64,000 nt of DNA from Chloroflexi bacterium bin125 (lineage in GTDB: Bacteria > Chloroflexota > Dehalococcoidia > Bin125), in contig MPNM01000008.1 of NCBI GenBank assembly GCA_002239025.1, positions 47,196 through 111,195 on the forward strand. Reading direction: 5' to 3'. Positions 16,696 to 63,925 of this stretch are shown here, in pieces. The position numbers and the translations under genes were made by a program. Positions within the stretch are counted from its first letter, which is position 1. Every line of letters starts with the position of its first letter. The notes beneath the pieces are model-generated. The model had not been told where the DNA came from, did no database searches, and saw nothing but the letters and a program-made list of their open reading frames with translations.

Positions 16696-16726
16696 TCATT
16701 CCCGCGCTCCGACGCGGGAATCTCGC
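16696..16726. repeat. Family D REP-like hairpin (GTCATTCCCGCG-N-CGCGGGAATCTCG)
   Basis: Perfect CCCGCG/CGCGGG stem; related copies at 39969-39998, 40084-40114, 52066-52096. Confidence 0.7.
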
Positions 16727-16841
16727 TGCTTCCGGAACAACGGTTGTGTCTCTGGCTAAGCGCCGGCTTGGCGCTACCAGGATCTGTTCACATCAGGTAG
16801 TGAAGTGATGGCTGATTGCCTAGCGGTCTCGTCAATGGGAA

Positions 16842-16900
16842 GCGGGACCCCCTCAGCCTTCGGCAGCTCCCCCTGCAAGGGGGAGCGGGGAACGCGGGAC
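16842..16900. repeat. Family B palindromic repeat (CGGGNCCCCTCNGCCTTCGGCANCTCCCCC...GGGGGAG)
   Basis: GCCTTCGGC tetraloop-type hairpin plus CTCCCCCTGCAAGGGGGAG hairpin; second copy 21362-21407. Confidence 0.7.
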
Positions 16901-19324: not shown

Positions 19325-19490
19325 TCTTTGGAGACGGCTCAGGTTTCATTTTCTCCCCCCTCCGGGGGGGAGATGCCGCAGGCAGAGGGGGGCTCCTTGC
19401 CTGTCGCCCCTAATGGAAGTCACCCGCCGCCCCCCAGTCACTCCGTGACATCTCCCCCGCAAGGGGGGAGATGGGACTTTGGGAGTCATG
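19325..19490. repeat. Family A repeat, internal core only (no outer TIRs)
   Basis: TTCTCCCCCCTCCGGGGGGGAGATGCCGCAGGCAGAGGGGGG...TCCGTGACATCTCCCCCGCAAGGGGGGAG aligns with cores at 27850-28010 and 45340-45480. Confidence 0.75.
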
Positions 19491-21114: not shown

Positions 21115-21146
21115 TGCGTGTCAGACACCGGCCGCCTTCTTCGGGT

Positions 21147-21266
21147 CCCCTCTCCCTTTGGGAGAGGGTTAGGGTGAGGGCCGGAACCCGCAAACAGCGA
21201 CTCCCAACAGATTGATGTGACGGGGAACCCTCACCCCGGCCCTCTCCCAGAGGGAGAGGGGGTAAG
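21147..21266. repeat. Family C long palindromic element
   Basis: CCCCTCTCCCTTTGGGAGAGGGTTAGGGTGAGGGCCGG...CCGGGGAACCCTCACCCCGGCCCTCTCCCAGAGGGAGAGGGGGTAA; near-identical copy 52967-53086. Confidence 0.8.
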
Positions 21267-21361
21267 AGCCTAGTCGCACTGAGCAGACTTACGTGCGCGC
21301 CTTCTGTTGAGCAGCCGTCATGATGTCACGTCGTGAACTCCGGTGCGGACGTGCAATTGGC

Positions 21362-27815: not shown

Positions 27816-28050
27816 GTTCCCAAGATTTCCAGTCCCCGCTCTACGGAGACCTTTGAAAGCTCCCCTTCTCCCCCCTTGCGGGGGAGATGCCGAAGGCAGA
27901 GGGGGGTCCGCTGTTTCGGGATCCCTATCTGGCCATCAACCGCCGCCCCCCCTCTGTCACTCCGTGACATCTCCCCCCGCAAGGGGGGGAGAGGGGATTC
28001 GGGAGTTCTTCGAGGGTCTTTGTATAGCGGGGACTGGGGAATGCGGTGTC
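27816..28050. mobile_element. Family A MITE-like element, full copy with ~40-bp terminal inverted repeats
   Basis: Left end GTTCCCAAGATTTCCAGTCCCCGCTCTACGGAGACCTTTGAA, right end its reverse complement (TTCGAGGGTCTTTGTATAGCGGGGACTGGGGAATGCG); core shared with 19325-19490 and 45308-45527. Confidence 0.8.
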
Positions 28051-39929: not shown

Positions 39930-39968
39930 AACCTGTTCACACGGAGGAGTCTCGCTCCAACGTGGATC

Positions 39969-40114
39969 GTCATACCCGCGCTTGACGCGGGTATCTCGCG
40001 GCGGCCCCTACAACGGCGCAACAACTGAGACTGCACGCAGACCTGGGCAACAGTGAAGAATGCTGCGAATGTGCAGCTTCTGTCGAGATTCCCGCGTCAA
40101 GCGCGGGAATGACG
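39969..40114. repeat. Composite family D element: two inverted REP-like hairpins flanking about 85 bp
   Basis: GTCATACCCGCGCTTGACGCGGGTATCTCG (39969-39998) and CGAGATTCCCGCGTCAAGCGCGGGAATGACG (40084-40114) are reverse complements of each other; internal CTGCACGCAG...CTGCGAATGTGCAG hairpin. Confidence 0.7.
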
Positions 40115-40154
40115 AGGTCAATTCAGGCGCAACAGCACCGATGAGCCCAAGTCA

Positions 40155-45162: not shown

Positions 45163-45307
45163 GAAATCAGTCTACGACCAAGCAGCACAATCTCATCGCA
45201 CACTCTGTACTCCCTTGTTCCGCCACGCCCGCGCTCCTCCACTCCGTCATACCCGCTCTCCGCTCCGGAGCCTGCCTCCGGCTTGAGGGGATGTCTCAGA
45301 AGTCAAT

Positions 45308-45527
45308 GTTCCCAGTCCCCGCTTTACGGAGACCTCTGAAAAGTCCCCTTCTCCCCCTTGCGGGGGAGATGCCGAAGGCACAGGGGGGGTCCGCTGTTCG
45401 GGAGCCTATCTGGTCATCATGCGCCGCCCCCCTGTCACTTCGTGACATCTCCCCCGCAAAGGGGGGGAGAGGGGATTCGGCAGTTGTTCAAAGGTCTCCG
45501 TAAAGCGGGGACTGGAATCGTGGGAAC
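45308..45527. mobile_element. Family A MITE-like element, full copy with TIRs
   Basis: GTTCCCAGTCCCCGCTTTACGGAGACCTCTGAAAAG ... CAGTTGTTCAAAGGTCTCCGTAAAGCGGGGACTGGAATCGTGGGAAC; >90% identical to 27816-28050. Confidence 0.8.
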
Positions 45528-50534: not shown

Positions 50535-51977
50535 GTGCGTGCCATCGGATATCTCAGTCAGCGCAGTGAACACCCGCCGCGGACCGACCACGCCGGCGAC
50601 GATCCCACGTTGGTCGTCCAGAACGCCAACTTCCTCGAGTATTGCCACGAGCACGGTTTCGAGCCCACCGCTACATTCCTCGATGCCGACACCGCGCACG
50701 ACAGCGAGCGCCCCGGACTCACCCAACTGCTGCGCCACCTGAGTGAAGAGGCGCGCGGCTTCACCTTCGTTATCACCCAGAGCTTTATCAATCTCGGCCA
50801 CGACGCCACGCATGCCGTCAGAACCGTGCTCCAACTCCGCGCTCGAGGCGTCCAACTCGTCTCTCTCGAGGACGGACCGATCGACGAGTCATCGCTGATC
50901 GATCTCTGGCGTCTACACAGCGATCCCGACCCCGATGCCAACCGCCGCAGGGAACGGTTGCAAGAGCGTGCCCGACTCGGCCAGGCCATCGGCCGTCCGC
51001 CATACGGCTACGGCGTCGGCGACGATGGCCGCTACGAGATCGACGAAGAGGAAGCGGCCGTGGTTCGGCGCATCTTCAACCTCTGTTTGCACGACGGACT
51101 CGGCATCCGCCGAATCGCGCAGCGCCTCAACGAAGAAGGCTTTCAAACTCGCCGCGGACGCAACTGGAGCATGGTCAGTATTCGCGACATGCTGCGTAAC
51201 CCCGTCTACATCGGCCGCTACGACAAGCTCGGGGTCAGCGTGCCGGGCAACCATCACGCCATTGTTTCCGAACCTGACTTCGAGGCCGTCGCGCAACAGA
51301 TGTCCCAGCGACGCACCGCGCCCGGCGTCAGTCATCCCTCCGACTTCTTACTCGCGGGACTGGTCTGGTGCGGCGAGGATCAGACACGCATGATCGGCGT
51401 GACCCGTCGTCAGCAGTGGCGCAAAGCCAGTGGCGACACTGCCGCGGCGACCTATCGCTACTACCAGTCCGAGGCACGCACCAACCAGTCGGTCGGCGGA
51501 TATCACACACGTCGTGCCGACGACCTTGAGGCCGAGGTTCTTTCGCACATCCGCGGAGAGCGGCAAGGCGGAGAGATTGCGGTGCTCAACATCGGCAGCA
51601 ACGACACCGCACTCGCCGCCGAGACCGCCGTCGCCGTCTCTACCGCCGAAGCGCGGCTCCGCGCCATCGACCGCAAGCTCAGCCAACTACTCGATGACGC
51701 ATCCGCCGGAGATCCACCGCCCGCGAGCCTGCAAGAGGCCGGAGCCGACATAATCGCCGAGTGGGAAACAGCCAGCGCCGATCTCGCCCAGATCAAAAGT
51801 CGAGCCCAGGCCCAGGAACGAGAAGCCGACCGCCGCCGCCGCAGAGATCAGCGTCTGCAACGAGTTCGAGAACACTGGGACTCCCTCGCATTCCCTCAAC
51901 AACGAGACCTGATCGAACACCTCGTCGACCGAGTCATCGTCTTCGACAACTCCGTCACCACCCAGCTCAAGGCCTAA
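50535..51977 (+). CDS. Large serine recombinase-like protein (resolvase N-domain + recombinase domain + degenerate Zn-ribbon/coiled coil)
   Basis: MRAIGYLSQRS..., DSERPGLTQLL, GRPPYGYGVGDDGRYEIDEEEAAVVRRIF, LNEEGFQTRRGRNWSMVSIRDMLRNPVYIG; several canonical catalytic residues appear substituted. Confidence 0.75.
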   Translation: MRAIGYLSQRSEHPPRTDHAGDDPTLVVQNANFLEYCHEHGFEPTATFLDADTAHDSERPGLTQLLRHLSEEARGFTFVITQSFINLGHDATHAVRTVLQLRARGVQLVSLEDGPIDESSLIDLWRLHSDPDPDANRRRERLQERARLGQAIGRPPYGYGVGDDGRYEIDEEEAAVVRRIFNLCLHDGLGIRRIAQRLNEEGFQTRRGRNWSMVSIRDMLRNPVYIGRYDKLGVSVPGNHHAIVSEPDFEAVAQQMSQRRTAPGVSHPSDFLLAGLVWCGEDQTRMIGVTRRQQWRKASGDTAAATYRYYQSEARTNQSVGGYHTRRADDLEAEVLSHIRGERQGGEIAVLNIGSNDTALAAETAVAVSTAEARLRAIDRKLSQLLDDASAGDPPPASLQEAGADIIAEWETASADLAQIKSRAQAQEREADRRRRRDQRLQRVREHWDSLAFPQQRDLIEHLVDRVIVFDNSVTTQLKA

Positions 51978-51984
51978 CCGCCCT

Positions 51985-52096
51985 CGCTTCCTCCGCTTCC
52001 CCCCTTGCGGGGGAAGCTGCCGAAGGCTGAAGGGGGGTTCCCGGCTTCAAGCGCAAACGTCCGTTCTGTCCTCTGCGAGATTCCCTCGGCAAGCGC
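51985..52096. repeat. Composite repeat: family A left-arm fragment plus degenerate family D hairpin
   Basis: CTTCCCCCCTTGCGGGGGAAGCTGCCGAAGGCTGAAGGGGGGTTCC then CGAGATTCCCTCGGCAAGCGCGCGAATGACG. Confidence 0.6.
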
Positions 52097-52135: not shown

Positions 52136-52534
52136 ATGCACCTCATCGCCTACGCCGACGGCGCGTCTCGTGGCAATCCCGGTCCTGCCGCTTATGGCGC
52201 AGTCCTCTGCTCCCCCGACGGCCAGGAACTCGACGCCTGGGGCAATCCCATCGGACGAGCCACAAACAACGTCGCCGAATACCAGGGCGCAATTGCCGCC
52301 GTCGAAGCAGCGCTCGAAATGGGCGCAACAAACCTCGAGCTGCGCCTGGATTCCGAACTCATCGTGCGACAACTCGAGGGCCGCTATCGAGTCAAGAACA
52401 AGCAACTCAAACCGCTCTTCGAGCAACTCAAAGCCCTGATCGACCAACTCGACACCTTCCAACCCACACACGTCCGACGCCACCTCAATCAACGAGCCGA
52501 CGCGATGGCCAACGAGGCGCTGGATCGCCGTTAA
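52136..52534 (+). CDS. rnhA: Ribonuclease HI-like protein
   Basis: MHLIAYADGASRGNPGPAAYGAV...NNVAEYQG...HVRRHLNQRADAMAN (DEDD RNase H fold). Confidence 0.85.
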   Translation: MHLIAYADGASRGNPGPAAYGAVLCSPDGQELDAWGNPIGRATNNVAEYQGAIAAVEAALEMGATNLELRLDSELIVRQLEGRYRVKNKQLKPLFEQLKALIDQLDTFQPTHVRRHLNQRADAMANEALDRR

Positions 52535-52552: not shown

Positions 52553-52950
52553 CGCCAGGCCGCCGGGCGGCCGCGGCGCACGTCTCGTACGCGCGTCGAG
52601 GAAAGTCCGGGCTCCGCGGGACAGGGCGCTGGGTAACTCCCAGGCAGGGTGACTTGACGGATAGTGCACAGAAACACACCGCCTACCCGGTCGACCACGC
52701 TCTTTCTGTGGCGACCGGCGGTAAGGGTGAGATGGTGCGGTAAGAGCGCACCAGCGGTCGGGTGACCGGCCGGCTGAGCAAACCCCGCCCGGAGCAAGAC
52801 CAAATAGGGAGACTGAGGCTTGTCCCGGGCCGTCTCCGGGTAGGTCGCTCGAGGCGGCGGGTAACCGTCGTCCCAGATGGATGGTCGCCAACCGATGCCC
52901 CGAGCAATCGGAGCATCGCGAACAGAACCCGGCTTACAGGCGGCCTGGCA
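52553..52950 (+). ncRNA. rnpB: RNase P RNA (bacterial type A)
   Basis: GAGGAAAGTCCGGGCTCC (P4), GGGTAACTCCCAGGC, AGGGTGA...GGTGCGGTAAGAGCGCACCAG, ACAGAACCCGGCTTA near the 3' end; P1 pairing GCCAGGCCGCC/GGCGGCCTGGC. Confidence 0.9.
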
Positions 52951-52966
52951 AAACGCCTACCTCCGA

Positions 52967-53086
52967 TCCCCTCTCCCCGTGGGAGAGGGTTAGGGTGAGG
53001 GCTGGGCCTGGACAAAGAACGATTCCCACGAGACAGATAGGCCGGGGAACCCTCACCCCAGCCCTCTCCCAGAGGGAGAGGGGGTA
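52967..53086. repeat. Family C long palindromic element (copy 2)
   Basis: CCCCTCTCCCCGTGGGAGAGGGTTAGGGTGAGGGCTGG...CCGGGGAACCCTCACCCCAGCCCTCTCCCAGAGGGAGAGGGGGTAA. Confidence 0.8.
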
Positions 53087-53205
53087 ATCGCCTCGCCGCA
53101 TCAAACTCACTTATGCCTACTTTTCCTAATGGAGATGGAGCGACACCTGAACCGCAAGAGACGATGTTCTGACCGGAGGAGAAACACAGAGGAGAGCGAG
53201 CACCA

Positions 53206-54798
53206 ATGTTGAACAAGTCACTCCGCGATCTCGTCGATCTGCCTACAAGTTCCGAAGACCCATCATCATTGGCCACGGTCATCACGGGAGTCACCCAGGA
53301 CTCCCGAGCCGTCCGACCCGGCGACCTCTTCGTCGCCATCCCAGGATTCTCCGTCGACGGCCACTTGTACATCGGCGACGCCATCACCAACGGGGCGGCA
53401 GCCCTCGTCGTCCAGTCCGACCGTCGCGACATCTGGCAACCAATCGCCGACAGCAATCCCGACATCGCCGTCATCAGCGTTGGCGACACGCGTGCCGCGT
53501 TGCCGGAGATCGCCGCAGCCTTCCACGACTTCCCGGCCCAAAAGCTCACAGTTGTCGGAGTCACGGGCACCGACGGCAAGTCGACCACGACATACCTCAC
53601 CCACGCCATGTTGACCGCCGCGGGACACCAGACTGGGCTGCTCAACGGCGTCGAGTTTCACATCGGAGGCGAGTGGACTCGCAACGAAACCGGCGAGACC
53701 ACGCCCGAGGCCGACATCATCCAGGCCAGACTCGCTGAAATGGTCGCCGCCGGCGACACACACGCCGTCCTCGAAGTCAGCTCCCATGGCCTCGACCTCC
53801 ATCGAGCCGACCAGATCAACGTACAGGTCGCCGTCTTCACCGGCCTCTCCGACGACCACCTCGACTTCCACCAGACGCGAGAGCAATACCTCGCCGCCAA
53901 GCTGAAACTGTTTCAGTCCCTGGAGGATCACGTGCCTCCTTTCTCCCCCCGCTCCGCGGGGGGAGATGTCCCGAAGGAACAGAGGGGGGATCTCGAGTCG
54001 GCCACCGCCGTCGTCAGAGCCGAGGATCCGCTCAGCGAAACCATCGCAGCCGCTCACAGTCGGCAGACGTTGGTGGCCACCGCCATCGCTGACACAAAGG
54101 CCGACCTCAGTATCCTCCCAGCCTCTCAGGACGCCACCGGTTCCGATGTCCGAGTCGTCACGCCCGCCGGAGCCCTCGCCGCCCGAGTCCCACTCCCTGG
54201 CGACTACAACCTGGGCAACGCAGCCCTCGCCGCCGGCGCAGCCTGGTCGCTCGGAGTCGGACCGATCGCGATGCAGGCCGCACTCAACAATCTCCGACCC
54301 GTCCCCGGACGAATGGAGTCGATCGACGTTGGACAACCCTTCACCGTCATGGTCGACGCCGCCGCCACCGGACCTGCGCTCGACCTGGCCCTGCAAACGC
54401 TCAAACCGCACACAGTCGGAAGACTGATACTCGTCTTCGGCGTCGCTGGAGAGCGTGACCCCGTGCGCAAATCCAGCATGGCGAAAGCCGCAGCTCTCTA
54501 TGCCGACCACACCGTAATCACGAACGAGAATCCACGCTCAGAAGATCCTGTCGAAATGGTCGATGAAATCGCACAACATCTCGTTGCCGCAGGCGGTCAA
54601 TACTTCGACAAAGAATCCGATCGCCGCCAGGCAATCGAGCGCGCGATCTCACTCGCCAAACCCGGCGACCTGGTCTTGATCGCCGGAAAAGGCGCTGAGC
54701 CCACGATGATCTACGCAGATCGCATTGAACCGTGGGACGATCGGGTTGTCGCCCGTGATCTGCTGCGAGGACTGATGTCTGAGCGCCTACCGCACTAA
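53206..54798 (+). CDS. murE: UDP-N-acetylmuramoyl-L-alanyl-D-glutamate--2,6-diaminopimelate ligase carrying an in-frame repeat insertion
   Basis: VVGVTGTDGKSTTTYL P-loop, DYNLGNAALAAGAA, PVPGRME; about 20 extra aa (PPFSPRSAGGDVPKEQRGDL) encoded by a family A fragment. Confidence 0.9.
   Translation: MLNKSLRDLVDLPTSSEDPSSLATVITGVTQDSRAVRPGDLFVAIPGFSVDGHLYIGDAITNGAAALVVQSDRRDIWQPIADSNPDIAVISVGDTRAALPEIAAAFHDFPAQKLTVVGVTGTDGKSTTTYLTHAMLTAAGHQTGLLNGVEFHIGGEWTRNETGETTPEADIIQARLAEMVAAGDTHAVLEVSSHGLDLHRADQINVQVAVFTGLSDDHLDFHQTREQYLAAKLKLFQSLEDHVPPFSPRSAGGDVPKEQRGDLESATAVVRAEDPLSETIAAAHSRQTLVATAIADTKADLSILPASQDATGSDVRVVTPAGALAARVPLPGDYNLGNAALAAGAAWSLGVGPIAMQAALNNLRPVPGRMESIDVGQPFTVMVDAAATGPALDLALQTLKPHTVGRLILVFGVAGERDPVRKSSMAKAAALYADHTVITNENPRSEDPVEMVDEIAQHLVAAGGQYFDKESDRRQAIERAISLAKPGDLVLIAGKGAEPTMIYADRIEPWDDRVVARDLLRGLMSERLPH
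53935..53995. repeat. Family A fragment inserted in-frame within murE
   Basis: CCTTTCTCCCCCCGCTCCGCGGGGGGAGATGTCCCGAAGGAACAGAGGGGGGATC aligns with the left core of family A (CTTCTCCCCCCTTGCGGGGGAGATGCCGAAGGCAGAGGGGGGTCC). Confidence 0.75.
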
Positions 54799-56535: not shown

Positions 56536-57357
56536 ATGTCAGACCACGACCTCCTGCCGCCCGACCAACGCCTCGACATCAACCTCGTCCGCTCGCTCCT
56601 CAACACTTCTGAGTTCGGCAACAACCTTCACTATCTGGTCCAGACCACCTCCACCATGGACGACGCGCGCCGCCTCGCCGAGGACGGTGCGCGGCACGGC
56701 ACAGTGGTCGTCGCCGACGAGCAGACTGCTGGTCGCGGGACCAAGGGACGCATCTGGGTCTCGCCGCCAGGTCAGAGCATTCACACCACGCTGATCGTTC
56801 GCCCGACCATCGAGCAACTCAAGCGACTCAGCATTGTCAGCCCCGTTGCCACGACCGACGCCGTTCGCGAGACTACGCCGCTGCAACCAACGATCAAGTG
56901 GCCCAATGACATCCAGATGGAACATCGGAAAATGGGCGGCATCCTGATCGAAGCCGACTGGGGAGCCGGTCAACCGCACTACGCGCTGGTCGGCATCGGC
57001 CTCAACGTCAACTTTGACCCCGCACCCTGGGCCACCGAGATTGACCGCCCGGCCACCAGTCTGATGATCGAACTCGGTGCCCGCCAGCAGCGAGAGCCGG
57101 TGTTCGCAGCATTGCTCAATGCCTTCGAGCAGCGCTTCAATCAGGCGGAATCATCCGAGTTGCACGAGGCCTGGACGTCTCGACTGGACACGCTGGGCCA
57201 GGCAGTCACGGTCACGCTCGCAAGCGGAGAAGCGATTCGAGGAACAGCCGTCGCGGTCGATGAAGCAGGAGCGCTAATCCTCGAAACCGAAGAGGGGCAG
57301 CAACGCACGTTTATCGCCGGGGAAGTCACCTTACGAGCGGCCACAACTCCGCAGTAG
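56536..57357 (+). CDS. birA: Biotin--[acetyl-CoA-carboxylase] ligase
   Basis: TTSTMDDARRLAEDG...ADEQTAGRGTKGRIW...KWPNDI BPL motifs. Confidence 0.85.
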   Translation: MSDHDLLPPDQRLDINLVRSLLNTSEFGNNLHYLVQTTSTMDDARRLAEDGARHGTVVVADEQTAGRGTKGRIWVSPPGQSIHTTLIVRPTIEQLKRLSIVSPVATTDAVRETTPLQPTIKWPNDIQMEHRKMGGILIEADWGAGQPHYALVGIGLNVNFDPAPWATEIDRPATSLMIELGARQQREPVFAALLNAFEQRFNQAESSELHEAWTSRLDTLGQAVTVTLASGEAIRGTAVAVDEAGALILETEEGQQRTFIAGEVTLRAATTPQ

Positions 57358-60300
57358 GCCGCAATCGGAGGTCCCGTTGCACGATCAGTGACGGCCCGAC
57401 GATTGGGTCACCAGGTCTCATGATCCGCCACTGACCTGAGATCAGGTCCAGCACGCAGTGCGACGTCCAGAGACCGCCAACATCTTCGCCCGAGAGCACA
57501 ATTCTCGTCTCAACGTCGGTCGGGACACCTTCAAGGTCCGTGAATCCAACCCACCAGACCTTCGCGTCTGGCTCGTCGACGCCATGCAAGCAGGAGGCGG
57601 GAACCGAAGCAATCTGCTCGAGCACATCCGCAGTGTGCTCGACTCGATGCGTGTGAAGGCGGATGGTCCCGTCACCCAGCGATTTGGCATCAATCGAGAG
57701 GTGTAAGCCTCCCCGGACGACCGTTGTCCACCCTTCGCCAGCCAGCACAACTGCATCGACACCCTCTGTTGAAGCGAATCCTCGAGCCAACTCACGAGCA
57801 AACGTAGTCTCGCCATTCGACGATCGCAACGCCGCGTCTTCGATCCGCTGCTTGGTCGACCTCGGTCGAGCGGTTTCGTTGATCGCTTGCGTACGGAATG
57901 CTGCTAGTTCGATGGCGGAAAGATCACGGACCGGACCTTGCTCGCCTGCCGAGTAAGACAGTGTTACCGAGTCGAGCGATGTCACACGCTCTGCCAGCGT
58001 GAGAGTCACATTACTCGCTGACCAGTCCAGTGAACTGACTTCGATTGGGCGACGGCCCGCCGTCACTGTGAAGTCCGATGGCAGCGCGAAGCTCCCGTCG
58101 ACTCGCTGATTGAACATCACTTCGATTTCGCGGGCGTTGGCCACGACGCCACTGACCATCGGTGCCGTCTCGGTAAAGTTGCGAACCACGAAGACAGTGT
58201 CCGGCGCCCTCACTCCGGTCAATCCGGCAATCCCGCCTCGCTGGCGTGACCAATAGACGAGACCGAACGCCTCCAGGTCGTCGGGCAAATCTCTGGATAA
58301 CTCCAGGTAGAGCGAGGTACCACTTACGTCGACGCTGCGCGTCGTTGCCTCAACGTCTGCCCCGACCAGCTCAAACCGCGACGCAGGAATGTGCCGTTCG
58401 AGCAGAGGCTGGTCAAACGTGAGGAACACCGACGACCTCAACGCAAAGGCGGACGCGATCTTCGGCGGCGCGGTGACATCGATCACATCGATCCCGAAAG
58501 AGGCGATTGTCAAGCCAGTCCCACGCAAGGATTCGCCCGAATAACTCACTCGCGCGGGCTGTTCCGCACGAAGACCGGGCGCAACCAACTGCAATCGGAG
58601 CGTGTTGTTGTCGATGGCTGTCACCGCTGCCACCGATGCGTCACCGTTGATCGTGAACTGATTCGGCTCAGGAAGATCTGGTTCCAACGCCTGGTCGAAC
58701 GTCAGCGTCAGCGACACCCCATTAGCTTCAGCGCTCACAACGCATGGAGCTGCTTGAAGCAACTCGCGTTGGAACATCTGTGACTGCGATTCACTTGATT
58801 TGTAACGTCGAACCGTCACGAGATCACCAACGCAGATGGCCAAGTCAGGACTGAGCGCCACTACCGACCCTTGAGTCGAGAACTCAGCGGCACGTTCTGC
58901 TTCGTCGATCAGCAGAGACCACTCGTAGTCCGCGAGCGGAGTGGTCTGCAGTTCTGCCAGGAAGGTCAGTGTGAGACCGCCGAAGTCTGAAGTGACGCAT
59001 TGCAGACCCCAGGCAGGATCGATCAGGTTGGGCACATCGAGATCAAACGCCGAGATCTCCAGGCCCGACGCATCACGCAGTGCATGCTCCGCCGGTGCAT
59101 GCGCCACCGACAACGATGCGCATTCGGGGATTGGGTCGGTCAAATGAATCATCAGGCTTCTGTCCCGTGTTGAGGCCTGCTCAATTGCTTGCAAGTCGTC
59201 GTCAGCCGCGACGCGGAGCGAGCTCGCCTCGAGCTGCATGGCCGTCCCCATCTCAGCATCGAATTCAACAACGATGCGCTCAGGTTCCTTGCGGTCCAGC
59301 GCGCTGGCCACCGGCGCCGCCGCAGTCAAGTTGGCGACCGGCATTGGGTCAATACTCTCTACGTCGTGGGGCGGCATCGAGGTGTCGCGAAGGTTGAATC
59401 GGCCATCGAAGATCGATTCAGGGCTGTAAGTCACCCTCAATTGCTCCCCTGGGACAACTCGCTCGGCCAGGTCGAGAAACACAGTTGAGTCGCTAATCGC
59501 GACCGACTCGATCGCCACGACCTCGTCGTTGTTCCGTAGAACATCAAACCACTGCACTTCTGGATGTTCGTCGCAGTCGAAGTCGGGAATCTGCTCTTCG
59601 AGAGCTTCGCAGTTTGGAGGAGGCATAGAGCTCGGGTCGAGCGGCTGATCGAATTCAATCGCCAGCTTCCGGTCATTTGCCGTCGCCTGGACAAGTAACG
59701 GCGCCACATCGACGCGATTGATCACTGGCATCGTAAAACCCGATACGGCATTTGGAGCATCGTCATCTCGCAGGCCGCCGGACTCTGGTAGCGAATACGT
59801 CAACAAAAGCGCAGCCCCTTCAGGTACCGATTCACCTGCTTCAAGCGAGATGTTCAGACGACGCCGTTGTTCCGACGAGGGATCGAAGACCACCGAATCG
59901 ATCGGTTGCGCCGGTTCGAACGAAAACCAGGAATGATCAACGGTGTTCAGTGCATCCAGCGTTTGATCGAAACTCAGAGTGACGACTTGCCCACTCTCGT
60001 CGGTGATCACCTCGACTGGATACGGCGCGTAGTCCGTCTGATTGTCAACTTCTTGAACAAACTCCTCGATTCTGTTGCCATGAGTATCCAGCAACGCATG
60101 GGTCGCAGGGGGCGTATAGCTGAGTGAGATCGACTCATCTTCGACAGCCCCGACAGCGAGCCTCAACGTCAAGCTGGAACCCATCAAGGCGACCGACTCA
60201 ATCCCGATTCCGTTCGACAGCGAAAACGCGGTCATTAGAGGCTGCGTGTCCTCGTCCAGATCGTCACTGAACCGCAGCAGCAGCACGGCACCGTCAACTT

Positions 60301-63300
60301 CAGCGGACTCGACCTCAGCCGTTCTTGGCGTCAGGTTCGTCAGAAGAAGATTGCTAATCTGGGCTCGATGTTGCCCGACATCGTCATCGCGGATTCGGAT
60401 TGTCCCCGAAACAGGGAAGTACTTGATGGTCAGGGATTCATCCGCTCCAACCGACTCTGAAAGCGTCAACACCACCTTTCCAACGCCATCTGGTCCGTCG
60501 TTGGAGACTTCGACAAAGGTGATTGAGGCGTCAGTTCCCTCGACCTTGAAATGATCGGTCGGATATCCGTCATCGCCGCCGAATCGAGGGTCGTCGTATA
60601 TCTCCTGATCGAGAATGACGGTGATCGTCTCGTCCTCAACCACTCCCGACACAGGAACAGGTGCGGTATCGGTCCGATTGTCGATGGCCAGCGAAAACGA
60701 CTCGACGCGGTTACCACTTGGGTCTGCGACTCCGGCCTCAGTCGGTATCAGATAATCGATCGATGCAGTTTCGTCCTCTACGAGCGCTCGCGAGAGCGTC
60801 AAGTCCAGCGAATCGTCGTCGATGGCAACGGTAGTCACGCTCACCGCCGACTCCGCCGACTCCGCCGTGATGCTGAACAGATTGGCTGGGACCGCCGAAG
60901 CCGAGTCGAGCGACTGGTCAAACTCGATCAAGACCGCGTCGCCGTCACCCGTCGCCGATGCGGCAGTCGGCGCGACATCGGTGTTGTTGGTCACGGCTTC
61001 GGAGAAGTCCGCAATCATCGTGCCATCGGACTGCTGCAAGGGTGAGTGCATCGGTGCGGTGTACGTCAGTGTGTAGTTCGCCCCCTCAACAAGCGGGTCA
61101 GCCAACGTCACTGTGACCGCCATGTCCGAGACGGTGACGCTCGAGACGGATTGTTCCCCCGAACCGAGGGAGAATGCCGATGCGTCCGGCGTTGAGTTGG
61201 TGTCCAGATTCACCGAGAAGCTGATGACGATCTCCGCGCCGTCTCCCACGACCGATCGCACCAGCGGTTCCGGCGTCATGTTGACCACGGCGAATCCCGT
61301 GAACATTGCGACGACGACTTCTTTGCCTGCACGTTTGAGTTTGTTGGAGTCTCCTGCGGAATAGGACACGGTGACCGTGTCGTCGTGCTCGACGACTGTC
61401 GACAGCGCGAGGGTCACCGACGCGCCGTCGATAGCCACGCCGGTGACTGAGATATCTGCCGGCATGAGACTGAAGTTGGTAGCTGGCGGCTTGCTGTCTT
61501 CATCCAGCGCGCGATCGAATGTAAGTACTAATGAGTCGCCGTTGACTGTAGCCTCGGTCGGCCGTGGCGCACCGTCTGCGTTGTTGGTCACTGACGCGGA
61601 GGTCCAGGCTGAGGTCTTCCACATCGCATCGACACTCTGCAGCGCGGGCGACGTGGTGTCCGTCGGCGGTTGATAGCTGATCGTCACCGACTCGTTGACA
61701 TCGGCCGCGGGATCGAGGCTGAGCACGACGTTGGAGCCGCTGACGGACACGGCATCGATGGTACCCGCAGCGCTGCCGGCCATGGTGAAGGTGGACTTGT
61801 CGGGCACTCCGCCGGCTGTGGCGAGTAGCGAGTGGGACATGACGATCGTAAGCGTGCGGCCTGCCGGAGCAACAGACGCTGAGTCAAACGTCGGCGTTGG
61901 ATCTCCCGCCAGGTTGGTTACAGGCAGCGAGACGAAGGAGTCGACGCCGATCTCCTTGCCGTCTCGCTTCAGCGGCGATTCCATCGGAGCGGTGTAAGAG
62001 ACGCTGATGCGCTCGGTGTGATTAATGGCTGAACTGAGAGTCAGGATCAGGTCGTTCCCATCGATCGATAGGTTCGTCACTGCTGCCGATGTGCCAGCCA
62101 CCGAGACGGCGATCCCAGCCGGAATTGAGCTGGGATCCAGAAGTCGATCGAATGAGAGGGTCAGACGGTCACCGTCAACCTCCGCCAAGATCGGACGAGG
62201 TTTGCCATCGGCGCTGTTGGTCACCGGTTGGCCGGTGAACGCCAGCACCGGCTGGGCGTCTGCAGCCGACTGCAATCGCGCTGCCATCAAGTCGGTCGGC
62301 GGCGCGTAGCCGACTGTGACCGTTTCGTCGACATCGGCCCGCGGGCTGAGCGATAGAGAGACGGTCGAGTCGTCAATCGCGACTGAGTCAACCGATGCGG
62401 AGGTTCCCGTGAGCGAGAACGTCGAGCCCGCAGGCATATGCTCAGCGTCCTCATCGAGGGCGAGCGAGAAGGTGATGGTCAGGGTCGATCCCTCGGCCGA
62501 AACCGCTGCGCTGCTGAACTCCGGTACAGGCGCAACGGTGTTGTTGGTAACTGACCGATCCGTGAACGAATCGGCATCTACGATGTTCCGGCCCTCAATT
62601 CTTGGTGGTTGGTCGGGCTTCGCATAGGAAACGGTGATCGCGGCCCCGGCGCTCACCGCCGATGTAAGGGTGAGTGTCACGGTGGACTCAGTCAGCGATG
62701 TGTTGGCGAATGAAATCTTGCTGATCGTGACTCCATCCTCACCGTCAATCGAGAATGCTGAGGCAGGCGCGACCGCCTTGAGTGGAAGATTGAATGTGAT
62801 CTCCAATACTGCGCCGTTAACTACTGCCTTCGTCACAATGGGCTTCGCCGTCGGTGTACTGCTCTGAAAGGTGAAGGAGTAAATGTCCGCCACATTGTGC
62901 GCTGCGTCTGACTGACGAAGCGGCGTCTGGTTGGGTTCGATGTATTCGAGGGTGTATGTCGTCGAGTCGCGATTGTGCAGGATTCCGCTCAGCGAGAGCG
63001 TGACAACTGCCCTCGACACCGAAACCCCCTCCACACTCGGAGCGTGTTGAATGCCTCCAATCGTGAACGCATCGGCAGCAGGAACGCTGTCCTCGTCGAG
63101 CTCCTCACTGAAATTCAGCGTGACGAGGTCATACAGGGCCGTAACGGAGTTGAGGGTTGGAGGGCTGTCGACGCGATTCACAACCGCACGCTCCGACCAG
63201 CTCTCGATCTGCTTGTTGCCCTGATTCGCGTCTTGCGGCGGATCGCCGTCATCGGCGTCGTCCCTGTCATAATCCAACGCGATGTCATCGCCTTCGTCAA

Positions 63301-63925
63301 TGCTGCCCTCGCGTCCCAGGTCGATATCGAGCCTGGACGATGTGGCGGATTGGATCTGGACATCGTTAACCGGCACGGATCGCCCATTGACCTCGACTGC
63401 GAAGGCGGCAATCGTCAGATATCCGTTCTCTCCAGTTGAAATGGCTTCGCAAAATGTGACGTAGATGTATCTCCCCGCCGAGTCCGTTACCAGACTGACG
63501 ATCTCAGGAGGAGCGTCCGTGTTGTTGGTTACGGCCTTGTCGTTGAACGCCGCCACCGGCGTTCCGTCGCCATCTGTGAGGGATGAGTTGGCCGCCGAGT
63601 AACTCAGTGTGACGGCCTCCGAGGTGCATTCGACATCCGGCACCGAGGATTCAAGCGTGAGCACCAAGTCGTTGTCGACCGTGGCGGACTGGACTGCGAG
63701 TGTGGAGTCGCCGAGTCGAACCGTGAAATCTGAGGCCGAAGCCGTGCTATCAGCGTTGAGTGCGGTGGTGAAGGAGATCGTGAGTTGCGCGCCCTCCACA
63801 CTGGCTGCAGTGACCGCCGGCGGAGACTGTGTGTAGGTCGTCAGCGTCGTGAGTCCAACAAACGTTGCGAACGCTAGCGCTGCAAACAGTAGAAGCGAGG
63901 GCCGGCGACCGTGCAGCGCCAGCAC
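57326..63925 (-). CDS. Giant (2,199 aa) secreted protein composed of ~20 tandem Ig-like (SbsA/Big_5-type) repeats plus unique C-terminal domain
   Basis: N-terminal signal peptide; repeating ~95-100 aa units (V.N..D.AP....A.V.G..L.L.F...LD..S.P....F.V...........V.L.L...V.....V.VSY..P......D..GN.V..F) throughout. Confidence 0.6.
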   Translation of the reverse strand: MLALHGRRPSLLLFAALAFATFVGLTTLTTYTQSPPAVTAASVEGAQLTISFTTALNADSTASASDFTVRLGDSTLAVQSATVDNDLVLTLESSVPDVECTSEAVTLSYSAANSSLTDGDGTPVAAFNDKAVTNNTDAPPEIVSLVTDSAGRYIYVTFCEAISTGENGYLTIAAFAVEVNGRSVPVNDVQIQSATSSRLDIDLGREGSIDEGDDIALDYDRDDADDGDPPQDANQGNKQIESWSERAVVNRVDSPPTLNSVTALYDLVTLNFSEELDEDSVPAADAFTIGGIQHAPSVEGVSVSRAVVTLSLSGILHNRDSTTYTLEYIEPNQTPLRQSDAAHNVADIYSFTFQSSTPTAKPIVTKAVVNGAVLEITFNLPLKAVAPASAFSIDGEDGVTISKISFANTSLTESTVTLTLTSAVSAGAAITVSYAKPDQPPRIEGRNIVDADSFTDRSVTNNTVAPVPEFSSAAVSAEGSTLTITFSLALDEDAEHMPAGSTFSLTGTSASVDSVAIDDSTVSLSLSPRADVDETVTVGYAPPTDLMAARLQSAADAQPVLAFTGQPVTNSADGKPRPILAEVDGDRLTLSFDRLLDPSSIPAGIAVSVAGTSAAVTNLSIDGNDLILTLSSAINHTERISVSYTAPMESPLKRDGKEIGVDSFVSLPVTNLAGDPTPTFDSASVAPAGRTLTIVMSHSLLATAGGVPDKSTFTMAGSAAGTIDAVSVSGSNVVLSLDPAADVNESVTISYQPPTDTTSPALQSVDAMWKTSAWTSASVTNNADGAPRPTEATVNGDSLVLTFDRALDEDSKPPATNFSLMPADISVTGVAIDGASVTLALSTVVEHDDTVTVSYSAGDSNKLKRAGKEVVVAMFTGFAVVNMTPEPLVRSVVGDGAEIVISFSVNLDTNSTPDASAFSLGSGEQSVSSVTVSDMAVTVTLADPLVEGANYTLTYTAPMHSPLQQSDGTMIADFSEAVTNNTDVAPTAASATGDGDAVLIEFDQSLDSASAVPANLFSITAESAESAVSVTTVAIDDDSLDLTLSRALVEDETASIDYLIPTEAGVADPSGNRVESFSLAIDNRTDTAPVPVSGVVEDETITVILDQEIYDDPRFGGDDGYPTDHFKVEGTDASITFVEVSNDGPDGVGKVVLTLSESVGADESLTIKYFPVSGTIRIRDDDVGQHRAQISNLLLTNLTPRTAEVESAEVDGAVLLLRFSDDLDEDTQPLMTAFSLSNGIGIESVALMGSSLTLRLAVGAVEDESISLSYTPPATHALLDTHGNRIEEFVQEVDNQTDYAPYPVEVITDESGQVVTLSFDQTLDALNTVDHSWFSFEPAQPIDSVVFDPSSEQRRRLNISLEAGESVPEGAALLLTYSLPESGGLRDDDAPNAVSGFTMPVINRVDVAPLLVQATANDRKLAIEFDQPLDPSSMPPPNCEALEEQIPDFDCDEHPEVQWFDVLRNNDEVVAIESVAISDSTVFLDLAERVVPGEQLRVTYSPESIFDGRFNLRDTSMPPHDVESIDPMPVANLTAAAPVASALDRKEPERIVVEFDAEMGTAMQLEASSLRVAADDDLQAIEQASTRDRSLMIHLTDPIPECASLSVAHAPAEHALRDASGLEISAFDLDVPNLIDPAWGLQCVTSDFGGLTLTFLAELQTTPLADYEWSLLIDEAERAAEFSTQGSVVALSPDLAICVGDLVTVRRYKSSESQSQMFQRELLQAAPCVVSAEANGVSLTLTFDQALEPDLPEPNQFTINGDASVAAVTAIDNNTLRLQLVAPGLRAEQPARVSYSGESLRGTGLTIASFGIDVIDVTAPPKIASAFALRSSVFLTFDQPLLERHIPASRFELVGADVEATTRSVDVSGTSLYLELSRDLPDDLEAFGLVYWSRQRGGIAGLTGVRAPDTVFVVRNFTETAPMVSGVVANAREIEVMFNQRVDGSFALPSDFTVTAGRRPIEVSSLDWSASNVTLTLAERVTSLDSVTLSYSAGEQGPVRDLSAIELAAFRTQAINETARPRSTKQRIEDAALRSSNGETTFARELARGFASTEGVDAVVLAGEGWTTVVRGGLHLSIDAKSLGDGTIRLHTHRVEHTADVLEQIASVPASCLHGVDEPDAKVWWVGFTDLEGVPTDVETRIVLSGEDVGGLWTSHCVLDLISGQWRIMRPGDPIVGPSLIVQRDLRLRPTAELWPLVR

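Follow-up and report, generated by a model that had tools for sequence, protein, structure and literature searches.

The murE gene of Chloroflexi bacterium bin125 contains, in frame, a copy of a small palindromic repeat. The DNA analyzed is a stretch of 64,000 nt from this member of the Dehalococcoidia (contig MPNM01000008.1; below, the window, with positions counted from its first letter), in which an earlier note, made from the letters alone, had drawn attention to a fragment of a repeat family called A inside murE. The extra segment is homologous to the repeat, keeps the reading frame and occupies a loop of the modelled enzyme; the site turns over among orthologues, conservation is at the nucleotide level, and in-frame copies of the same unit are present in other genes. 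We think it probable that the insertion is of the kind represented by the Rickettsia palindromic elements (RPEs) and the intragenic repetitive extragenic palindromes (REPs), and that the site has been turned over repeatedly by families of hairpins. That palindromic repeats occur inside genes is already known; what is new is the phylum, the untagged two-hairpin module, MurE as a host, and a well-resolved record of turnover.

The host gene and the position of the insert

The host gene is a single uninterrupted open reading frame (ORF) at 53206-54798 on the + strand, and its 530-residue product is identified by Pfam, by matches in the PDB and by an AlphaFold2 (AF2) model as MurE, the UDP-MurNAc-L-Ala-D-Glu:2,6-diaminopimelate ligase. 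The Pfam domains Mur_ligase (PF01225), Mur_ligase_M (PF08245) and Mur_ligase_C (PF02875) each score above cut-off, and solved MurE enzymes are matched with a best E of 8e-77. The AF2 model, built on an alignment of 87 orthologues, has a mean predicted local distance difference test score (pLDDT) of 91.3, and Foldseek gives it template modelling (TM) scores of 0.84-0.85 to 8g6p and 2xja, both mycobacterial MurE. Throughout the 87 sequences the P-loop residues T120, G121, T122, D123, G124, K125, T127 and T128 are invariant, as are D217, H218, L219, D220 and F221 of the DHLDFH motif, and K232. The alignment to the PDB matches sets K232 opposite K262 of M. tuberculosis MurE, the lysine that is carbamylated in solved MurE, and on this alignment we take K232 to be its counterpart. 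Residues 441-444 (54526-54537) read ENPR, with E441, N442 and R444 invariant in the 87 sequences; ENPR (E441 N442 P443 R444) is kept throughout the clade at the position of DNPR, the motif of the MurE enzymes that add meso-diaminopimelate.

The extra coding segment, delimited by an alignment of 120 orthologues, is residues 243-267, VPPFSPRSAGGDVPKEQRGDLESAT, encoded at 53932-54006 on the + strand. It places 25 residues between H242 and A268, with LKLFQSLEDH and AVVRAEDP as flanks, and the peptide stretches that span it are ...SLEDHVPPFSPR and SAGGDVPK.... Close orthologues without an insert have 4 residues at the site (HPNGQ-AVV), the solved structures also have short linkers there, and the net gain is 63 nt, or about 21 residues. 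The earlier note was right, then, that the MurE ORF is continuous while carrying additional repeat-derived residues in frame (25 versus 4), and that a short linker is the normal condition.

It had also expected the insert to lie between the N-terminal and central domains, and in this it was mistaken, as both Pfam and the model have the insert splitting the central domain. Mur_ligase_M is matched as two stretches, the first of which stops at residue 241 (profile positions 1-115 of 200), and in the model the insert lies between a helix (225-241) and a strand (267-271). Because the Mur_ligase_M match splits at residue 241 and the model places the loop there, we assign the insert to the interior of the central ATP-binding domain: as modelled, it is a loop that begins 11 residues past Lys232 and no inter-domain linker. 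Mean pLDDT is 72, 51 and 80 in the ten-residue blocks 241-250, 251-260 and 261-270; residues 250-254 are the sole MurE segment with pLDDT below 50, and it is chiefly at the insert that the interior of the model is poorly predicted. The segment is predicted to be disordered.

Structure of the A module in murE

A profile hidden Markov model built from intergenic copies alone matches murE at 53939-53994 on the + strand (nhmmer; E=9.7e-8, 27.8 bits). This unit, also found by alignment and by repeat pairs, is a solo copy of what we call the A module, a two-hairpin repeat of about 50 nt. The 52-mer that the earlier note had picked out, 53941-53992, occurs once in the window. Positions 53943-53989 form a repeat pair with the inner arm of the intergenic family A element at 27821-28038 (47 nt, 81%, at 27947-27993), and the repeat search also pairs the murE module with 45427-45455. 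The claim of homology to family A is borne out by the 81% match over 47 nt to the inner arm and by the profile match.

One layout is common to the murE module and 20 further copies, which come from the window and relatives: TCCCCTTCT, a C-run, a loop, a G-run, AGATG, hairpin 2, and CAGAGGGGGG. Hairpin 1 of the murE copy, TCTCCCCCCGC-TCC-GCGGGGGGAGA (53942-53966, + strand; from sequence, folds and a hairpin scan), has an 11-bp stem, and its 3-nt loop coincides exactly with codon 250 (Ser). Hairpin 2, GTCCC-GAA-GGAAC (53968-53980, + strand), is defined by pairing across the 21 copies and has one broken pair here (C70:A78); it is unbroken, as GTCCC-CAA-GGGAC, in the closest relative, L067 (L numbers designate DNA loci of relatives or metagenome contigs, and P numbers orthologue proteins). 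Pairing in hairpin 2 holds in 98.7% of cells across the 21 copies, versus 16-41% for slid controls, and the sole unpaired cell is that of the window's murE copy. Compensatory changes occur at two of its pairs, giving GCC-GAA-GGC, GTCGC-GGA-GCGAC, GTCAC-GGA-GTGAC and GTCCC-GAA-GGGAC. Hairpin 1 offers no usable covariation among these copies, as the C/G-run stems never vary and the alignment register shifts between subtypes. The 3' G-run AGAGGGGGG (53981-53989, + strand; from folds and conserved columns) is able to pair with the 5' CCTCCTTTCT (53935-53944, with a three-base overlap with hairpin 1), and the module folds as a Y, with an outer C/G stem and two hairpins. There are no terminal inverted repeats (TIRs) around the murE copy, which is a single arm module. 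Divergence of the original 4-residue linker blurs the boundaries of the insert.

The repeat family elsewhere in the window

The A module is present in the 64 kb as nine strong copies and one weaker match, and every copy besides murE's is intergenic. A scan of the window for perfect hairpins places 21 repeat-family hairpins between genes and 1, that of murE, within a gene. The repeat search gives two full-length family A elements, both intergenic and serving as reference copies, 27821-28038 and 45304-45517; each consists of two inverted A modules plus outer arms starting CCAGTCCCCGC. A shorter intergenic element, 19343-19480, has two inverted A modules and lacks the outer arms. Solo A modules, found by the repeat search and the profile, lie between genes at 16831-16895 (- strand) and at 51988-52052 (+ strand), the latter 5' of an RNase H gene. 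Inverted pairs of A modules therefore make up three elements of the window; TIR pairs are seen in the intergenic full elements only. The 10-mer CCAGYCCCCG, with which the C-type hairpin described below opens, has its only window matches at the four termini of the two full elements (4 versus 0.47 expected).

The full elements, at about 215 nt, are small and multi-copy and have no transposase gene inside, so that the earlier note's term, MITE (miniature inverted-repeat transposable element), suits them in these respects; the TIRs that the term implies do not flank the murE copy. The outer arms, at 27829-27851, 28015-28037, 45312-45334 and 45493-45515, are homologous to a separate dispersed hairpin of 32-34 nt, CCAGTCCCCGCTTCACGCGGGGACCCGCTCGG, copies of which lie at L009:6206-6228, L054:7369-7391 and L063:8954-8976. 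Family A is therefore a mosaic of hairpin modules and no classical MITE.

Is the murE copy a recent arrival from a neighboring element? Hairpin 1 is CCCCC(C)TTGCGGGGG, of the form CCCCC(C)-TTGC-GGGGG, in all of the window's intergenic copies, and the murE copy has a longer stem, CCCCCCGC-nnn-GCGGGGGG, which copies in the clade's other genomes typically have. Because the subtypes differ, the murE copy is no fresh jump from the local family A. The closest relative (P0002/L067), at 92% nucleotide identity over murE, shares the insert; the two differ at 3 of 75 nt, and of these differences one restores hairpin 2 and two are non-synonymous. The difference in subtype and the shared insert both contradict the recent insertion that the earlier note had entertained.

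Occupants of the site in orthologues

A search of protein collections yielded 120 orthologues of 55-100% identity, all from Chloroflexota/Dehalococcoidia metagenome-assembled genomes (MAGs) where the source is named. The state of the site was scored in the 116 that are full length, and DNA was examined at 29 loci. No insert is present in 60 of the 116, and the peptide is shown by these relatives to be dispensable. An A-type insert is found in 27, reading SPREAGGD followed by AEGRGGLP, VAERQRGAP or VPKGQRG; a B type, (T)VIPAQAGIS, in 17; a C type, SP(I/L/R)(H/Q)(S/A)GTR, in 8; and other states in 4. The lineage-specific insertion that the ortholog alignment had been expected to reveal did not appear: the site is occupied in about half of the orthologues, and by three hairpin families. 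The insert-free alleles, from across the tree, have in common the motif HPxG(Q/R).

B-type DNA is CGTC-ATTCCCGC-GCAG-GCGGGAAT-CTC (L003, L019). It fits the CGTC-1 class of REPs in its CGTC tag, its 8-bp stem starting with AT, its 4-nt loop and its 3-nt tail, although the tail is CTC versus a CGTC-1 consensus of CCA; the window's own insert is outside the CGTC-1 family. CGTC-tagged REP-like hairpins, TCGTCATACCCGCG...CGCGGGTATCTCG, do occur in the window, at 39967-39998 and 40084-40115 and also at 16698-16721 and 49-72; they include an inverted dimer adjoining ftsK and are of the same type as the B insert of the sister-lineage murE. C-type DNA is CCAGTCCCCG-loop-CGGGGACCCGCTCGG, a 32-nt hairpin that is a dispersed repeat in its own right (L009:6206, L054:7369, L063:8954); no standalone C-type hairpins were found in the window. 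The idea that C is a deletion derivative of A, suggested by L043 and L044, was dropped, as the C hairpin with its 3' tail is its own dispersed repeat.

Several alleles are compound. In L012 (OZ242948) the 622-residue MurE has three extra tandem 48-nt partial units plus an A module (L012:3691-3927); 70 nt upstream of the murE start the same composite recurs in identical form (L012:2921-2985), an observation suggestive of conversion between the copy inside the gene and the one outside it. In L003 and L019 half-units of B stand in tandem, in L005 a 24-nt C-like hairpin is nested in hairpin 2 of the A module, and there are A subtypes with 4 nt more in hairpin 2, balanced by 4 nt fewer downstream. 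The A-type alleles are all alike in position, orientation and 5' reading frame, and an A-type insert is still present in a MurE only 68% identical to that of the window (P0087). CCAG marks the left junction of inserts of both the A and the C type and is contained in the empty site as well. The sister clade suggests that ATCTCG, 3' of the module in the window's murE, was left behind by a B element, an idea weakened by the finding of the same tail on an intergenic A copy, L006:2027.

Among the 120 sequences this is the only internal site of repeat-derived insertion or deletion. Length otherwise differs through N-terminal start calls, which reach into intergenic repeats upstream; spurious extensions of this sort, through stop-free intergenic repeat (...SPLQGELPKAEG..., ...SLSPREAGGDAEGRGGLP...), are seen in P0002, P0049 and L012:2800-4683.

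Number of state changes

How often has the site changed hands? We built a neighbor-joining tree of the MurE protein with the insert site masked, ran 200 bootstraps, and applied Fitch parsimony to the states. There are 23 changes on the tree, and 19-27 across the 200 bootstraps. Deep support is poor, and a conservative count was therefore limited to mixed-state clades with support of at least 0.93; within clades of 0.93-1.0 support there are at least 9 state changes. The supported clades of mixed state are P0087/P0091/P0095, P0044-P0058, P0015/P0038, P0017/P0042, P0023-P0040 and the one in which the window and P0002, both A, are sister, with support of 1.0, to 11 sequences (P0003-P0013) that are all B.

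Conservation of the hairpin and of the peptide

Between A-type genomes the four-fold degenerate sites of murE are just 52-73% identical, and within the module they hardly vary. L004 and L012 agree at 52 of 53 nt of the module and at 12/12 four-fold sites, versus 145/246 in the rest of the gene (Fisher p=0.002); for L006 and L012 the figures are 12/12 versus 154/249 (p=0.004). An identical 48-nt core is common to L010, L042 and L044. In 26 A-type peptides there is little or no variation in S-P-R and A-G-G-D, and the residue between them varies (E, S, Q, F, T or Y), a pattern part of which was fixed by the regular expression used for selection, so that the test is partly circular. The varying residue is encoded exactly by the 3-nt loop of hairpin 1. 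Because the variable residue is precisely the hairpin-loop codon, the constraint, as read from the sequences, is on the nucleic-acid hairpin and not on the protein. Moreover, the intergenic copies are equally conserved across species, and the conservation therefore belongs to the repeat family as such rather than to murE. The hairpin-1 loop reads GAA in A-type murE copies of six different genomes, whose intergenic copies mostly differ. By hand translation of the consensus all six frames of the A module are open, and three of them (f1, f2 and r1) are used in real genes; a stop-free insert therefore needs no selection.

The same module in other genes

A scan of the DNA of metagenome contigs for hairpin 1 followed by AGATG gave 22 loci, and in six distinct genes, each validated by Pfam, the module lies deep inside a long ORF. 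In a DnaE (DNA polymerase III alpha; L049:8759-12238, - strand) it is part of about 120 repeat-derived residues inserted between the finger domain and the HhH domain. A class-III, BioA-like aminotransferase (Aminotran_3; L052:6895-8451, + strand, the same as L062 and L064) has the module inside its domain; these contigs may come from another environment or phylum. A phage terminase large subunit (Terminase_3; L051:3678-5546, - strand, the same as L053) has a multi-module insert. In three proteins of two CoA_transf_3 domains (L048:5674-7914, - strand; L061:5574-7937, + strand; L063:2627-5125, - strand) the A module is the linker, read in three different frames or orientations, and these fusions of CoA-transferases III may reflect repeat-mediated joining of adjacent paralogues through a stop-free intergenic repeat. 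The parallel with RPEs that had been drawn for murE is strengthened by these copies in DnaE, Aminotran_3, the CoA_transf_3 fusions and the terminase, and by the low-confidence loop in MurE.

Origin of the insert and alternative explanations

What events account for the states of the murE site? The insert is a solo unit of a GC-rich, non-coding palindromic repeat, whose two hairpins are closed by a C-run/G-run stem; inverted pairs of such units, together with a second small hairpin, build the family A elements of about 215 nt, in the manner of REPs and REPINs or of the mosaic elements discussed below. Within murE it is presumably translated, as a disordered surface loop of about 21 residues rich in Pro, Gly and charged residues, which MurE seems to tolerate and which would be neutral for the enzyme. 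The site is permissive and probably preferred, and in related Dehalococcoidia three hairpin families have repeatedly been gained, lost, exchanged, tandemly duplicated and nested there. Occupancy is probably renewed by processes of the repeat family itself, such as insertion near or into existing hairpins, gene conversion from other copies, and slippage that yields tandem units and deletions; and the hairpin is probably kept by these dynamics of the repeat (re-insertion, gene conversion, hairpin-biased repair) rather than by selection on the peptide.

Could the patchiness have another origin, in a few old insertions followed by homologous recombination that shuffled murE alleles among related lineages? 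We doubt it, though it is a possibility to be taken seriously. The deep nodes of the MurE tree have supports of 0.01-0.2, as expected of a mosaic gene, the GAA loop is common to A-type inserts of six genomes, and the HPxG(Q/R) motif is common to insert-free alleles across the tree. States differ, however, inside clades with 0.93-1.0 whole-gene support, three unrelated families occupy the one site, and the +4/-4 nt subtypes and the tandem and nested versions need local events. Another history, with one ancient insertion, vertical decay ever since and a site that has been inactive, would explain why A-type alleles are alike in position, orientation and 5' frame and share the GAA loop. We consider it very unlikely and already contradicted, because decay would erode the stems, which are perfect where four-fold sites are just 52-73% identical, and because B and C are different dispersed families rather than decay products; the identical composite copy 70 nt upstream of murE in L012 and the nested insertion in L005 also speak against it. 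The alternative of an artefact of sequencing or assembly, such as a repeat-induced chimera, was named in the earlier note as a possible refutation. Repeats can indeed mis-join short-read contigs, but the identical protein is found on 9 contigs from NCBI, JGI, ENA and Logan, the insert is in frame with collinear murE on both flanks, and relatives with single-contig, chromosome-level MAG assemblies of more than 3 Mb have inserts at the same codon; we give this explanation practically no credence.

Two further alternatives assign a function to the insert. The hairpin might act as nucleic acid, in stability or processing of the mRNA, in a translational pause between sub-domains, or as a protein-binding DNA site. 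Consistent with this, every occupied state is a hairpin, the stems are invariant, with 12/12 four-fold sites identical in a gene whose synonymous sites are near saturation, and hairpin 2 has compensatory changes. Such a function is nevertheless unlikely in our view: 60/116 orthologues do without the insert, hairpin 2 of the copy in the window's murE contains a broken pair, and intergenic copies are as well conserved across species, which makes the conservation a family property. Nor is there a terminator-like site. No intrinsic terminator or promoter was detected at the insert, and the sole Rfam match over the whole window is the RNase P RNA, with none at the insert or the repeats. The other functional proposal, raised in the earlier note, is exaptation at the protein level, in which the loop would add to MurE, for example, a partner-binding or regulatory surface. 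The insert is always stop-free, and it has persisted in frame over long divergence (to the 68% identical MurE of P0087). Since all six frames of the module are open, however, the lack of stops is no sign of selection; close relatives have unrelated peptides (VIPAQAGIS, SPIHSGTR) or none, and about half of all the orthologues scored are without an insert; the variation tracks the DNA loop, only that codon varying; 2/3 of the differences from the closest relative are non-synonymous; and the segment has low pLDDT and is predicted to be disordered. Exaptation seems to us extremely improbable, and we found no sign of it.

Several observations weigh against a repeat insertion that has turned over many times, which is the account that we favor. 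No clear target-site duplication accompanies the inserts, beside which there are, by eye, just doubtful direct repeats of 3-5 nt. Among the 11 window proteins scanned against Pfam there is no Y1 transposase, and no genome-wide search for a REP-associated tyrosine transposase (RAYT) was made; no RAYT, IS200/IS605 or IS110-type transposase was identified in the same 11. Folding z-scores of the insert region are unremarkable (-1.33 as RNA, -2.12 as DNA); these are uninformative because shuffled C/G-run sequences fold equally well, and covariation among copies was therefore used for structure instead. The tree is by neighbor joining only, with deep nodes at bootstrap supports of 0.01-0.2, and recombination between lineages could inflate the inferred number of events; it can explain neither the lineage-specific tandem and nested forms nor the +4/-4 nt subtypes. 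Finally, the shared GAA loop argues for vertical descent of at least some A inserts, whose extreme conservation at the nucleotide level would then call for selection or biased repair.

Is the loop merely tolerant, or is it a target? Target preference at the MurE loop, beyond tolerance, is a hypothesis that we raise because a single loop is reused, new hairpins nest in old ones, and CCAG is found at the left junctions of A and C. A bolder version, which we regard as speculative and rather unlikely, is that the loop following the Lys232 helix is an actively targeted landing pad, where hairpin families that recognize the local sequence (CCAG) or a hairpin already there take one another's place in frame, with stems kept by hairpin-directed conversion or repair. 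If so, the site would be a natural time-series of structured selfish DNA entering, persisting in and leaving an essential protein, and might reveal a transposase-independent mechanism of mobility for REP-like hairpins.

Neighboring features and significance

The region upstream of murE holds other features. A class A RNase P RNA (52555-52952, + strand; 281.7 bits, a full-length match to the model) lies between the RNase H gene and murE and is followed by a hairpin-repeat element. That element, 52954-53113, directly after the RNase P RNA, is a copy of a second repeat family, CCCCTCTCCC-loop-GGGAGAGGG TTAGGGTGAGGG, arranged as inverted pairs; another copy is at 21133-21291, and the two are 79-87% identical. 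A large serine recombinase with Resolvase, Recombinase and Zn ribbon domains (50535-51977, + strand) adjoins the RNase H / RVT_3 gene (52136-52534, + strand), and this arrangement is kept upstream of murE in L067. Downstream, at 57326-63925 (- strand), a 2199-residue protein has Big_5 domains and SWM_repeat units, the latter at least 8 in number, and its internal repeats account for the repeat families D1 and D19.

The findings extend the phenomenon of selfish DNA within proteins, known from the RPEs of Rickettsia and the REPs of proteobacteria and Opitutus, to uncultured Dehalococcoidia of the Chloroflexota; they add a two-hairpin repeat that is new and untagged, and they add MurE, an enzyme that is a drug target. 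With orthologues sampled so densely, turnover can be followed unusually clearly: a single loop has any of three repeat families, tandem and nested forms, or nothing, and the conservation of nucleotides is decoupled from the peptide. Through such inserts the gene and protein diversity of MAG catalogues is inflated, and alignments and domain calls can go astray. The MurE loop is marked as one that tolerates about 20-95 extra residues, and the A module as an in-frame linker of CoA-transferase domains hints at repeat-mediated gene fusion.

Comparison with known repeat systems

RPEs are dispersed palindromes. Unrelated housekeeping genes contain them in frame and gain a peptide while the fold is kept, with 44 insertions in genes of R. 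conorii (PMC10969869). The A module resembles them in being in frame in murE, DnaE, a BioA-like aminotransferase, CoA-transferases and a terminase, and in that the murE insert lies in a loop of a confident model. The hosts differ, a free-living or symbiotic high-GC member of the Chloroflexota here versus an AT-rich obligate intracellular alpha-proteobacterium. The elements differ too: the A module is a two-hairpin Y of about 50 nt without a CGTC or GTAG tag, whereas RPE-1 is about 100-150 bp, and at the one murE site three families turn over. Homology of the GC-rich, roughly 50-nt, untagged A module to RPEs is unlikely. The QMITEs of Coxiella burnetii are MITEs whose in-frame insertion is reported to have implications for protein evolution (PMC5896051). 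These are classical MITEs with TIRs, whereas the murE insert is a sub-module without a TIR pair.

The intragenic GTAG and CGTC REPs are stem-loops, mostly extragenic and often in inverted dimers, of which a minority are genic and add 20-30 residues (Di Nocera et al. 2013, PMC3733652). DnaE and DnaE2 are among the genes decorated by them, and in recB roughly one and the same site holds REPs that differ between X. campestris and X. oryzae (PMC3733652). In that 2013 survey CGTC repeats from Chloroflexi are absent, MurE is absent from the hosts, and CGTC-1 is equated with Neisseria dRS3 and with RPE-6 of R. conorii (PMC3733652). It is the B type of the relatives, and not the window's A module, that matches this description of CGTC-1, RPE-6 included. 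The A module has REP-like traits, in that hairpin 1 is 25 nt, multi-copy and mostly extragenic, with inverted dimers common. Its consensus is without either tag, however, and the turnover at murE, with at least 9 well-supported changes at one codon position, is much denser than that at recB.

In REPINs of the REP-RAYT system, reportedly described by Bertels and Rainey in 2011, two short palindromes in inverted orientation are believed to make up the mobile unit; singlets are frequent, and within a genome the consensus is conserved. The A-family pairs differ, at about 215 nt with extra outer hairpins, and the murE copy is a singlet inside a gene. The bacterial interspersed mosaic elements (BIMEs) of E. 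coli and the neisserial intergenic mosaic elements (NIMEs) with dRS3 are larger intergenic elements assembled from a few small hairpin modules. Family A is similarly built, each arm comprising an A module and an outer hairpin that is C-like, but those mosaics are intergenic and here single modules are read as protein. The small dispersed repeats (SDRs) of cyanobacteria, reportedly described by Elhai et al. in 2008, are said to be hairpins of about 20-30 nt that insert into genes and into other repeats. They belong to another phylum and have another sequence, and yet the 24-nt C-like hairpin nested in the A module of the L005 murE is like them in kind.

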